From IMG/VR virus record IMGVR_UViG_2531839330_000011: DNA of 35,429 bases; one strand, written 5' to 3'. Source of the stretch: a virus (taxonomy: Duplodnaviria > Heunggongvirae > Uroviricota > Caudoviricetes). Shown one piece after another: positions 1 through 34,513 of the stretch. Under the pieces are notes generated by a model that was not told where the DNA came from, ran no database searches, and worked only from the letters and a program-made list of their open reading frames with translations. The first letter of the stretch is position 1, and the number at the start of each line of letters is the position of its first letter. A program made the position numbers and the translations under genes.

Positions 1-1002
1 TTACCCTCTATTGTCAAAAGGGTTCAATTCAACAGCAGCCTCTAAATGACCTGGAGCAAAATGCGCATAACGCATAGTCATTTTTATATCGCTATGCCCC
101 AGTATTTTTTGCAACACAAGAATATTTCCGCCCCGCATCATAAAATGACTGGCAAACGTGTGACGTAGCACATGAGTTAATTGCCCATCAGGAAGCTCGA
201 TCTTCGCTCTCTTAATTGCAGCGTCAAAAGCCTCATAACATGGTGAAAATAGCGCTCCTCGTTTTTTGGGAAGCATAGCCTGCAATTGAGGTGAAATCGG
301 TACAGTGCGGTTCTTCTTTCCTTTAGTTTTAACAAATGTGATTCGACCGGGCAGTACTTGAGATTGCTTTAATCCTTCTGCTTCACTCCACCGAGCACCA
401 GTCGCAAGCCCAATACGGACAACAACCCCCAAATCTTTATTCCGTGACTCATCACACGCAATCAGAAGGCGTTCAATCTCATCTACATACAGAAACGCCA
501 GTTCCTTTTCTTCCTCACGAAACTTGCGAATACCAGTCAGGGGGTTTTCACCAGACCACTCCCCAAGGCGCTTCAGTTCGGCAAAAACAGCATGTAGATA
601 TGACTGCTCGCGATTAACGGTTGCTTCACTAAGTTTTTTCTTCCCCTTGGGATTCCACTCTCCTGATAACCTTCTTTCCCGATAAGTGGCAAACATATTT
701 TTGTCAAACTGAGAAGCAAATGGATCTCCCAGCCTGGAACAAATCGCCTCAAGTTTGACTTTGCGCTCTGCACCAGAGGACAAGGTTTTACCGTACATCT
801 CAAACCAACGAGCAATCAACTCAGAAAGACGAGGACCAGAACCATCTTGAAACTCGTCTCCAACTCTACTATTCATTAAACGGCGCTCATAAGAGAGCGC
901 CTCACTTTTTGTCGCAAACTGTTTACGAATGCGTTTTCCCGATGCCCCGTAGGGATAACATTCGCAAAGCCATTTACCTGATGGAATCTTACGAACCGAC
1001 AT
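1..1002 (-). CDS. int: Phage integrase, tyrosine recombinase (P2 Int-like), 333 aa
   Basis: C-terminal catalytic region with conserved R...HxxR...Y pattern (LRHTFASH...MTMRYAHF) and size match P2-type integrases. Start codon at 1002, stop at window position 1. Confidence 0.93.
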   Translation of the reverse strand: MSVRKIPSGKWLCECYPYGASGKRIRKQFATKSEALSYERRLMNSRVGDEFQDGSGPRLSELIARWFEMYGKTLSSGAERKVKLEAICSRLGDPFASQFDKNMFATYRERRLSGEWNPKGKKKLSEATVNREQSYLHAVFAELKRLGEWSGENPLTGIRKFREEEKELAFLYVDEIERLLIACDESRNKDLGVVVRIGLATGARWSEAEGLKQSQVLPGRITFVKTKGKKNRTVPISPQLQAMLPKKRGALFSPCYEAFDAAIKRAKIELPDGQLTHVLRHTFASHFMMRGGNILVLQKILGHSDIKMTMRYAHFAPGHLEAAVELNPFDNRG

Positions 1003-32824: not shown

Positions 32825-33085
32825 ATGTTCCGTTGTCCGCTTTGTGGCGCATCTGCCCGTATCCGCACCAGTCGTCCGGAAAATGATTCAAACACCGTGC
32901 GGCAAAAGTATTACCAGTGTAACAACCTGGAATGCGGCGTATGCTTCTCAACACTGGAAGCTTTCCATAAATTCACATCGAAACACGCCTCCGGCGTTCA
33001 CTCATCAGAAGGTATCCCGTGGCATGAGCTGCCAGCTTCACACAGGGGAAACAATCAGATGAGTTTGCCTTTACCTCAGAATTAA
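32825..33085 (+). CDS. ogr: Ogr/Delta-type zinc-finger late transcription activator
   Basis: MFRCPLCGASARIRTSRP...YYQCNNLECGVCF is a Cys4 zinc finger of the P2 Ogr family. Terminal position in the prophage, as in P2. Confidence 0.85.
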   Translation: MFRCPLCGASARIRTSRPENDSNTVRQKYYQCNNLECGVCFSTLEAFHKFTSKHASGVHSSEGIPWHELPASHRGNNQMSLPLPQN

Positions 33086-33108
33086 CAGGCAGAATTGCCG
33101 GAGTAACA

Positions 33109-33228
33109 AAAAAGCGATAGATTACGTGCGGGTGCCTTTCGGCTGATGGTCGGAGGGAATACCCGAAGGCCGGATGTGGAAAGGCCCCGGAAAACATTTC
33201 TGTTTAACCGAGGCCCTAACCCGTCAAC
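33109..33228 (+). repeat. Copy A of a roughly 100-120 bp element (imperfect direct repeat of 34121..34228), immediately upstream of the hok-like gene
   Basis: By-eye alignment of the two copies, about 70-75% identity, with shared core GTTTAACC-AGGCCCTA (33202..33218 versus 34205..34221). Confidence 0.5.
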
Positions 33229-33274
33229 CTAGCAAGTGATAGGTTAGCGCCTCTCCAACAAAGGAGCAAGCGCT

Positions 33275-33415
33275 ATGTCGCAAAAATCGCTTACGGCCAT
33301 CACGTTCTGCGTGACGGTAATCCTCATCATCTGGATGCTGCACGGTTCGCTGTGTGAAATACGGATGAGCTTCTGGGGAGCGGAGTTTGCGGCGTTCTTA
33401 CAGTGTAAGCAGTAA
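33275..33415 (+). CDS. Hok/Gef-family type I toxin (small membrane peptide), 46 aa
   Basis: MSQKSLTAITFCVTVILIIWMLHGSLCEIRMSFWGAEFAAFLQCKQ has one TM helix followed by the Hok signature SLCEIR and ...AAF.... AAGGAG RBS 9 nt upstream. Not in the supplied ORF track because it is under 60 aa. Confidence 0.7.
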   Translation: MSQKSLTAITFCVTVILIIWMLHGSLCEIRMSFWGAEFAAFLQCKQ

Positions 33416-33503
33416 GGAAACCGCGACGGGGAGGCAACTCCCCGTCAATCGGTTGCCGGGGTAAGGCCGATAAGGCACCCTATCTCATAGGCATGAATAA
33501 CAA

Positions 33504-33536
33504 CCCCGCAGCGTAAAAACTGCGGGGTTTCTTTTT
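33504..33536 (+). terminator. Rho-independent terminator (CCCCGCAG-loop-CTGCGGGG plus T-run)
   Basis: 8-bp GC stem and TTTCTTTTT tract downstream of the hok-like gene. Confidence 0.75.
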
Positions 33537-33604
33537 GGAACTCTCACTAGCTAGTGAGCCGTTAACTGCACATAATGCTCGCACAACAAATCAGTTAAAA
33601 GAGA

Positions 33605-33886
33605 TTACTCAGCATTCTCCTGCTTCCATTGCCGGATCATTTCATCGGTAACATCACTTTCATAACATACCACGTCATCCCCTCCAGTACGGCTATATGC
33701 ACTGCGTCCACCACATCTACTACCATTCCTTGCATGATTATACGGACACGCACAATTGCCTGGATAAGATTCAATGGATTCTTTAATTATTTCTTTCTTG
33801 ATCTGAGCATCTGACTTTCCTGTTGCTGCATACCCACTAAAAGATACCAAACAAAGGCAGATTGCCATTAATAAACCACATCGCAT
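33605..33886 (-). CDS. Small secreted Cys-rich protein of unknown function
   Basis: Start trimmed to the internal Met that opens a signal peptide (MRCGLLMAICLCLVSFSGYAA). Mature part has four Cys (CACPY...RCGG...VCY). Strongly AT-rich. Confidence 0.45.
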   Translation of the reverse strand: MRCGLLMAICLCLVSFSGYAATGKSDAQIKKEIIKESIESYPGNCACPYNHARNGSRCGGRSAYSRTGGDDVVCYESDVTDEMIRQWKQENAE

Positions 33887-34120
33887 ACCGATACACTCTA
33901 TTACTAACCAATCATAGCCCACATCATAAAATCGAGATGAGGAGTACAACACCTTTAACAAGAAGGTGCCATCACGATAATATGCCGTGCAATTCATCAA
34001 AAAAAAGATCTATATCAAAGAGATAGAGTTATTATCAGTGCTGCAGACATCAGCATTCGAGGCAGCAGAAAGACAGTAAATCTAACGAATTTGTCTTTTT
34101 CTCAGGATGTTGTCAGATTA

Positions 34121-34228
34121 AAAAAGATAGAGTAGCGCAGACACCTTTTGGTGGATGGTAGGAGGAAAAATGAAGTTGAGTGGGAAGATCCCAGAAAAAA
34201 CCTTGGTTTAACCAAGGCCCTAGTTCAA
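34121..34228 (+). repeat. Copy B of the roughly 100-120 bp element (see 33109..33228)
   Basis: Same by-eye alignment as copy A. No hok-like ORF follows copy B. Confidence 0.5.
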
Positions 34229-34359
34229 TATGCGAAATGCAGATGAGTTGCAGGAGAGTTTTGCTTCACCCTTAGAGTTTAAACAGACGTGTACTATCAT
34301 TATTTCTGCATATCGCCACACCATCGCCACTTTACCGCCATTTAACAAAATACAAATAC

Positions 34360-34383
34360 AAAAAAACCACCCGAAGGTGGTTT
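34360..34383 (-). terminator. Rho-independent terminator of the tRNA operon (minus-strand hairpin CCACC-TTCG-GGTGG plus T7)
   Basis: Plus strand reads AAAAAAACCACCCGAAGGTGGTTT, about 45 nt beyond the tRNA-Leu 3' end. Confidence 0.8.
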
Positions 34384-34426
34384 CACGACACTGCTTATTG
34401 CTTTGATTTTATTCTTATCTTTCCCA

Positions 34427-34513
34427 TGGTACCCGGAGCGGGACTTGAACCCGCACAGCGCGAACGCCGAGGGATTTTAAATCCCTTGTGTCTACCGATT
34501 CCACCATCCGGGC
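34427..34513 (-). tRNA. leuZ: tRNA-Leu (anticodon UAA)
   Basis: Reverse complement GCCCGGATGGTGGAATCGGTAGACACAAGGGATTTAAAATCCCTCGGCG...GGGTACCA matches E. coli leuZ as recalled, with long variable arm and encoded CCA. Confidence 0.93.

Follow-up and report, generated by a model that had tools for sequence, protein, structure and literature searches.

A probable hok/sok-type toxin–antitoxin cassette with a truncated mok frame in the cargo region of a P88-like prophage

The hok/mok/sok system of plasmid R1, whose mRNA architecture is summarised in PMC9841398, combines a membrane toxin (Hok), a leader frame (mok) that must be translated at least as far as the hok Shine–Dalgarno (SD) sequence, and an antisense RNA (Sok). 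Genes of the hok family are about four-fold enriched in prophages, according to a preprint by Escalera-Maurer et al. that explicitly left mok, Sok and the mRNA elements unanalysed (bioRxiv 10.1101/2025.08.07.668861). Here we analyse a hok locus in IMG/VR record IMGVR_UViG_2531839330_000011, a stretch of 35,429 nucleotides (nt) referred to below as the window. The window is an Escherichia coli prophage of the P2 family, with int at 1..1002 on the minus strand and gpD, ogr and the tail genes in P2 order. We conclude that positions 33095..33536 in all probability form a complete hok/sok-type type I toxin–antitoxin cassette with a truncated mok, carried by a P88-like prophage, and that a second, partial element further right, copy B, is a relic.

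The cassette is of an already annotated and catalogued kind, its exact protein being present in RefSeq and in phage P88. Little is therefore new: the enrichment of Hok in prophages is known, and a variant differing by one residue has already entered toxicity assays. What changes is the map: the prophage ends at the 3'ETS-leuZ repeat, and its cargo includes the cassette, a gene for a small, apparently secreted protein and the relic copy. The disrupted mok is the only mildly novel aspect.

Toxin gene and RNA elements of the cassette

The hok open reading frame (ORF) encodes a peptide of 46 amino acids (aa), MSQKSLTAITFCVTVILIIWMLHGSLCEIRMSFWGAEFAAFLQCKQ, that contains the SLCEIR signature, and an AAGGAG ribosome-binding site lies 8 nt 5' of its ATG. 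The match to the Pfam Hok/Gef profile extends over the whole small peptide (HOK_GEF, PF01848; 30.1 bits against a cut-off of 22 bits, E 3.7e-7; peptide residues 7-44 aligned to positions 5-42 of the 42-position profile), and PHROG 251 is matched at full length with 82.8 bits. In NCBIfam only sub-threshold matches to HokA and Hok were obtained, the best being HokA with 35.8 bits against a cut-off of 89. By-eye correspondence places C12-x-T14, L26-C27-E28 and E37, which follow a hydrophobic segment (A8-L22), in the order of the conserved Hok logo residues C16, T18, L30, C31, E32 and E41 (numbering of bioRxiv 10.1101/2025.08.07.668861). The peptide is identical to RefSeq WP_000078920.1 ('Hok/Gef family protein'), whose locus is 99.9% identical to that of the window; a single residue separates it from the cluster-72 sequence 72_1621. 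The latter was cloned (LRP137) for arabinose-induced toxicity assays by Escalera-Maurer et al. and is not among their only non-toxic constructs, 19_179, 60_1482 and 69_1540 (bioRxiv 10.1101/2025.08.07.668861). Judged by these matches, the locus appears to encode a Hok-family type I toxin of the lineage that those authors call cluster 72. A sequence-only reading of the window had already recognised a 46-aa Hok/Gef-type ORF with SLCEIR, about 190 bp after ogr and with its own ribosome-binding site and terminator. The Pfam and PHROG scores bear this out, as do the AAGGAG at 33261-33266, the hairpin at 33502-33529 with its T-run and the 189 nt that separate the end of ogr (33085) from the hok ATG.

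Conservation of the remaining elements (Table 1) was judged in two sets, nine blastn-derived loci (73-100% identity) and 71 unique IMG/VR loci found by the exact tac motif. In the nine-locus set, TTGC and TAnATT of the hok promoter are invariant and the spacer is variable. Rfam family RF01794 (hok leader/sok), whose model covers the sense strand of the leader as far as the hok AUG, matches 33130-33285 over its full length (1-157) with 47.3 bits (E 1.6e-8), short of the gathering score of 59; the leader appears to be a divergent member of this family. The full-length RNA is predicted to fold with a minimum free energy (MFE) of -178.4 kcal/mol (z -7.3), and its 5' and 3' ends pair to close the structure, with 33130-33144 (tac) against 33465-33480 (fbi) in both the MFE and centroid folds. 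The fbi element is invariant in the blastn-derived alignment, and GCACCC stands at +346..353 in 65 of the 71 unique loci. When the 3' 80 nt are removed, tac (33130-33140) is predicted to re-pair with ucb (33179-33188) in the resulting 327-nt fold, and likewise in the 71-sequence consensus. The hok SD is held in a conserved anti-SD/SD hairpin, and the 5' end of the coding sequence (CDS) pairs with UUUGCGGCG near the CDS 3' end, a pairing that is also conserved. Compensatory changes in the 3' stem-loop (33419-33454) affect 33425/33446 (GC to AU), 33426/33445 (AU to GC), 33432/33439 and 33433/33438.

On the opposite strand, the predicted Sok RNA folds with -28.8 kcal/mol (z -2.75) into a 5' tail and a hairpin, GGGCCUCGG...CCGGGGCC, followed by UUUCC. 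The -35 box of its predicted promoter overlaps the hok SD. The antisense -10 box, TAACCT, is present in 70 of the 71 unique loci, and a TTGNNN -35 box at 17-18 nt is found in 70 of 71. The Sok promoter of R1, TTGCGC-17-TATCCT, has the same layout. Between near-invariant flanks, the leader stretch at ~33190-33235, the partner of the 5' half of the predicted Sok, is rich in insertions and deletions (indels) and is the most variable part of the cassette. Such variability would fit diversification of Sok-target specificity, and it also appears to be what breaks the mok frame. The sequence-only reading had described the regulation as atypical or partly decayed; this description stands for mok and fails for the rest, as the promoter, tac, ucb, the predicted Sok promoter and hairpin, the SD hairpin, stem-loop, fbi and terminator are conserved.

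Table 1 Features of the hok cassette and the surrounding prophage cargo (window coordinates)
Feature	Position	Strand	Basis
ogr, late-gene activator; last P2-type core gene before the cargo slot	32825..33085	+	Pfam Ogr_Delta 52.4 bits; ogr/Delta annotation in RefSeq relatives
hok promoter: -35 TTGCCG 33095-33100, 17-nt spacer, -10 TAGATT 33118-33123, +1 ~33130	33095..33123	+	read from sequence
Full-length hok mRNA, ~407 nt (predicted)	33130..33536	+	Rfam leader match, fold, compensatory pairs (71 unique loci)
tac element GGGUGCCUUUCGGCU	33130..33144	+	pairs with fbi (full-length) and ucb (3'-truncated); invariant in blastn-derived alignment
SD GAAGG and AUG of leader ORF	33165-33176	+	conserved in aligned loci
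Truncated mok ORF: SD GAAGG 33165-33169, AUG 33174, 21 codons, stop TGA 33237-33239	33165..33239	+	ORF list
Predicted Sok antisense RNA, ~60-65 nt, complementary to mok start and leader	33172..33236	-	fold of 33236 to 33168
ucb GGAAAGGCCCC	33178-33188	+	conserved; alternative partner of tac
Hypervariable leader stretch	~33190-33235		comparison of 71 loci
Predicted Sok promoter: -35 TTGCTC (reverse complement of 33264-33269), 17 nt, -10 TAACCT (reverse complement of 33241-33246)	33241..33269	-	conservation
hok SD AAGGAG 33261-33266 and hok CDS, 46 aa	33275..33415	+	Pfam, PHROG, RefSeq, dN/dS ~0.2
Stable 3' stem-loop, likely 3' end protector of processed mRNA	33419..33454	+	compensatory changes
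fbi element GGCCGAUAAGGCACCC, including GGCACCC 33474-33480	33465..33480	+	pairs with tac in MFE and centroid folds
Intrinsic hok terminator, G+C-rich hairpin 33502-33529 and T-run	33502..33536	+	terminator scan
Cargo gene, 93-aa Cys-rich protein, function unassigned in PHROG	33605..33886	-	PHROG 27544, E 3.6e-58; RefSeq hypothetical WP_071529678.1
Copy B, apparent relic of promoter-proximal 5' part (-10 region to ~+92) of a second hok locus	34118..34228	+	nhmmer, divergence
attR, right prophage end, 73-bp direct repeat of attL	34358..34430		3'ETS-leuZ and last 4 nt of leuZ

Position in the prophage and the second copy

The right end of the prophage is defined by a direct repeat. The attL counterpart, L009:3771-3843 in a lysogen with the same prophage, is 98.6% identical to 34358..34430 and lies 157 bp past the int stop codon; comparison of the attL sequence with the stretch between 33400 and 34430 revealed no further att copy besides 34358-34430. 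Homology to K-12 begins only at 34358, two bases ahead of the annotated 3'ETS-leuZ, and in the Sakai genome annotation 'prophage Sp13, P2-like' stops at the base equivalent to the att boundary of the window. Thus the repeat, the K-12 boundary and the Sp13 annotation together set attR at 34358..34430, and the DNA from ogr to 34357 belongs to the phage. The segment 33086..34357 is prophage cargo, and the hok cassette lies inside, not outside, the prophage. A prophage end at ~33540, where similarity to phages P88 and Chuche stops, was also considered and rejected, as no att copy is found there.

Free phages carry the same arrangement. P88, Chuche, P884B11 and 500465-2 share ogr and the hok cassette with the window up to 33487-33538, and the similarity of Chuche and P88 stops at 33536-33538, that is, at the hok terminator; downstream of its cassette, Chuche has variable cargo (com and a methyltransferase gene) and then int. 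The cassette thus sits between ogr and the att repeat and is internal to free phage genomes, as befits a moron. The best explanation of the whole, and one that we consider well supported, is that it is a moron occupying the ogr–attP slot of a prophage of P88-like type (Xuanwuvirus, P2 family) that has integrated at the leuZ 3' end. The sequence-only reading had located it beyond the late end of the prophage, at the junction with the chromosome, and had proposed a search for the att repeat; that search, the start of K-12 homology, the end of Sp13 and the ogr–hok arrangement of the phages contradict this location. Nor does the region align to an inactivated chromosomal hok pseudolocus, the outcome that would have told against the earlier interpretation: it aligns to an active-looking mobile family, a 456-bp cassette that 1751 of 5426 complete E. 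coli genomes carry. Its sites include P2-like prophages at leuZ, serS and flk, the position behind lom in Stx and lambdoid phages, and the O157 urease island. An ogr homologue was found in 100 of the 137 loci examined, nearly all of which were retrieved by the hok-family tac motif.

Copy B lies between the cassette and attR. Its resemblance to the 5' part of the cassette (copy A) had been described as that of an imperfect copy with no toxin ORF behind it, and both statements hold. Pairwise alignment over 200-nt stretches containing both copies gives 73% column identity. An nhmmer family profile built from eight other family members, with the window sequence left out, finds 34118..34224 (E 3.3e-8, profile positions 22-134) and nothing comparable elsewhere in the 35 kb, which establishes homology and excludes chance similarity. 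The Sok promoter, the hok SD and CDS and fbi are all missing from copy B, and the ORF list and profile search revealed no Hok-like ORF behind it. What is left has decayed: the -35/-10 spacer is 12 nt, tac reads AGACACC and the mok AUG is lost. Copy B is not recognisable as sok by Rfam (no RF01794 match even at E <= 10), and an internal deletion that retained fbi found no support, the only profile match at 34223-34286 being insignificant (E 2.5). The segment occurs in 643 genomes, always at this locus, and belongs to the prophage arm of the leuZ type. A comparison of four variants shows it diverging at least as fast as its flanks (82.6% versus 88%), and the P-arm (34306-34357) and att core are well conserved by comparison.

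Intact tandem pairs of hok loci exist. In L136, which is another P2-like prophage integrated at this leuZ att site, two intact tandem hok loci stand right before the shared P-arm. Three IMG/VR contigs carry such pairs 455-722 bp apart, namely L136 (reverse strand, 2209 and 2679), L031 (4316 and 5038) and L096 (5543 and 5998); the L136 pair consists of different Hok subtypes, MPQK and MSQK. Judged by its sequence, copy B appears to be the non-functional remnant of another hok locus that once stood in tandem with the first. The simplest history would be a tandem or recombinant hok pair of which the att-proximal member lost everything downstream of the leader, a small gene now lying between the two. 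In Sakai Sp13 (L015), IS30 has replaced ogr–hok, and the 93-aa ORF, copy B and attR are kept.

The mok frame and rival explanations

The window locus departs from the textbook arrangement in its leader frame, in which a frame change within the hypervariable Sok-target stretch has cut mok to 21 codons. In relatives (for example EcPF18, strain 8479 and strain 5264), the SD and AUG that start this short frame open one of 61-79 aa that overlaps hok, and the ORF starting at AUG 33174 is therefore the mok of this family. ATG 33146 was rejected as the mok start because it is ACG in genomic-island copies and not conserved. Both short upstream ORFs, 33146..33232 and 33174..33239, stop ahead of hok, as the sequence-only reading had noted; mok itself terminates 35 nt short of the hok AUG and 22 nt short of the hok SD. 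A further frame, 33220..33357, runs across the hok start; it is open, out of frame with AUG 33174, and represents the downstream part of the old mok frame; it contains no ATG, GTG or TTG before GTG 33352..33354, the last codon ahead of its stop. Mok thus does not overlap hok in the window, and the locus appears to be a homologue with a disrupted mok, not the full three-gene arrangement of R1. This state is common. Of 66 scorable unique relatives, 13 have a mok that overlaps hok and 53 have one of only 6-29 codons, whose stop lies 14-84 nt upstream of the hok AUG. By comparison, hok is intact and 46 aa long in 66 of the 71 unique loci, and indels, common in the variable stretch of mok, are absent from the hok CDS. 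Literature searches on hok in P2-like phages, and on mok frames that are absent or not conserved, turned up no paper that bears directly on this.

By homology to hok/sok of plasmid R1, from which every step is taken, the cassette would work as follows. A weak constitutive promoter would give a stable mRNA of ~407 nt, locked in a closed form by pairing of the 5' tac with the 3' fbi. Slow 3' trimming to the stem-loop at 33419-33454 would then free tac to re-pair with ucb. The short-lived antisense Sok, transcribed from a promoter over the hok SD, would pair with the leader at 33172-33236, including the mok start, stop translation and trigger decay. Once Sok synthesis ends, because the prophage is lost or induced or an infecting phage shuts off transcription, Hok (46 aa) would be made and would depolarise the inner membrane.

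Whether Hok can be made at all with so short a mok is the main point on which readings divide. The cassette could be translationally dead or strongly attenuated, ribosomes never reaching the anti-SD/SD hairpin, and could persist as a young hitch-hiker with the phage. Several observations point this way and weigh against a complete, working cassette. In R1, five stops that end mok early, ahead of the hok start, cause loss of function, with no Hok synthesis (PMC9841398), and the window mok also stops short of the hok SD. Truncated-mok loci do not compensate by a freed hok SD, as its predicted accessibility in the processed mRNA is equally low in long-mok (0.28) and truncated-mok (0.27) loci (p = 0.41). 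The R1 genetics and this low accessibility together imply that the window copy could be poorly translated or silent. The remaining points concern regulation: besides the Rfam score below the gathering score, a promoter consensus scan missed both the hok promoter (its -35 box matches 3/6) and the Sok promoter, both -35 boxes being weak; tac is invariant in the 71-locus set by construction, since the exact motif was the query; and Sok, the mRNA ends and 3' processing are predictions. Against a dead cassette stands the fact that truncated mok is the majority state, yet hok is intact and appears to be under purifying selection. The median pairwise dN/dS (ratio of non-synonymous to synonymous substitution rates) of hok is 0.20 in truncated-mok loci, 0.22 in long-mok loci and 0.25 in the MPQK subgroup, no sampled member of which has a long mok, although the pairs are non-independent and mok status flips among loci encoding identical Hok, and selection on hok may act chiefly while mok is intact. 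All other regulatory elements are conserved, and the indels spare hok. On this evidence we judge a dead or attenuated cassette unlikely, and over silent copies we favour a hok family that no longer needs an overlapping mok. Specifically, overlapping mok may be dispensable in this phage-borne lineage, Hok being gated by Sok and mRNA refolding alone or through a short, non-overlapping leader ORF with a variable stop; we put this forward as a tentative proposal. If true, it would mean a coupling mechanism unlike the R1 paradigm, and the Sok-target stretch could diversify by indels regardless of the mok frame. With mok frame-disrupted in about three-quarters of the sampled loci and hok under purifying selection, confirmation would qualify the generality of the hok/mok/sok model.

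For the biological role, candidates are prophage addiction or stabilisation, exclusion of other phages (abortive infection) and help in lysis. The last of these could be the main one, Hok being released on SOS induction and aiding lysis and progeny release, as with hokW–sokW of the Stx2 phage Sp5, where HokW/sokW is reported to hasten lysis after mitomycin C and to double the release of phage (PMC8621323). The 46-aa hok family also occurs in Stx and lambdoid phages. However, HokW is a different, HokD-like peptide, and nothing ties the cassette of the window to SOS; it has promoters of constitutive appearance and is not part of the late operons. We regard a mainly lytic role as rather unlikely. 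Copy B, for its part, could be functional as an orphan Sok-like antitoxin or decoy, or as a terminator insulating the prophage from read-through out of glyW-cysT-leuZ. The minus strand of copy B in the window does carry a clean hairpin followed by U6 (CCUUGGUUAAACCAAGGUUUUUU, -14.2 kcal/mol), downstream of the leftward tRNA operon. This hairpin is lost in three other variants (-1.9 to -4.9 kcal/mol), which rules out a conserved minus-strand terminator, and copy B is no better conserved than its flanks. A promoter scan found no convincing antisense promoter there, and identity to the Sok target of copy A is limited to runs of ~8 nt, making cross-pairing unlikely. We regard a function for copy B as highly improbable.

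Neighbouring cargo and comparison with known systems

Between the hok terminator and copy B lies the gene of the 93-aa protein, which has a signal-peptide-like N-terminus; a longer ORF (131 aa) extends to 34000. Pfam and NCBIfam searches with the 93- and 131-aa forms gave nothing significant. The hok 3' stem-loop (33424-33447) and the terminator (33502-33529) are terminator-like on the minus strand too, that is, they are bidirectional hairpins, and the second could terminate the leftward transcript of the 93-aa ORF. The att repeat itself contains 3'ETS-leuZ, a known small-RNA sponge in K-12 (annotated b4759), and lysogeny leaves a second, tRNA-less 3'ETS copy at attL that is 98.6% identical. 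The sequence just outside attL, at L009:2300-3600 (E. coli O145 RM11626-C1), belongs to another island and holds a DNA polymerase gene and what is left of an integrase. The leuZ site is a stacking site for several elements, and the L004 and L005 strains bear IS1, restriction or tet genes there.

The closest known relatives of the cassette are cluster 72 (72_1621, 72_1589), WP_000078920.1 and gp52 of P88 (NC_026014): at the protein level there is no difference from WP_000078920.1 and a single-residue difference from 72_1621. P88, Chuche and P884B11 have ogr and hok in the same position as the window. The truncated mok and the relic copy B are not described in the preprint of Escalera-Maurer et al.

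Other hok loci are more distant. Phage annotation pipelines tag the window protein 'MokW-like host killing', which appears to be a loose family label, not a statement of orthology. Orthology to hokW/sokW of the Stx2 prophage Sp5 was rejected, as the cloning primers encode a distinct 51-aa, HokD/RelF-like peptide (MKQQKAM...DYESEK; PMC8621323); in Stx phages, the 46-aa Hok family is a separate locus behind lom. The chromosomal hokA-E genes of K-12 belong to the same toxin superfamily, and the comparison with these loci that the sequence-only reading had suggested shows that the window locus is an ortholog of none of them. K-12 has nothing between yecA and 3'ETS-leuZ, and the window locus is free of interruption by insertion sequences.

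Compared with hok/mok/sok of R1, the window locus shares an SLCEIR-type membrane toxin, an mRNA predicted to be closed by tac–fbi pairing with tac–ucb as the alternative, an anti-SD hairpin, a 3' stem-loop and a terminator, and its predicted Sok promoter likewise lies over the hok SD and points into the leader. It differs in its carrier (a prophage versus a plasmid), in the length of its toxin (46 versus 52 aa) and in the start of mok (+45 versus +116). The main difference lies in the extent of mok, which in the window has 21 codons and ends 35 nt before hok, whereas in R1 it encodes 70 aa and overlaps hok (PMC9841398).

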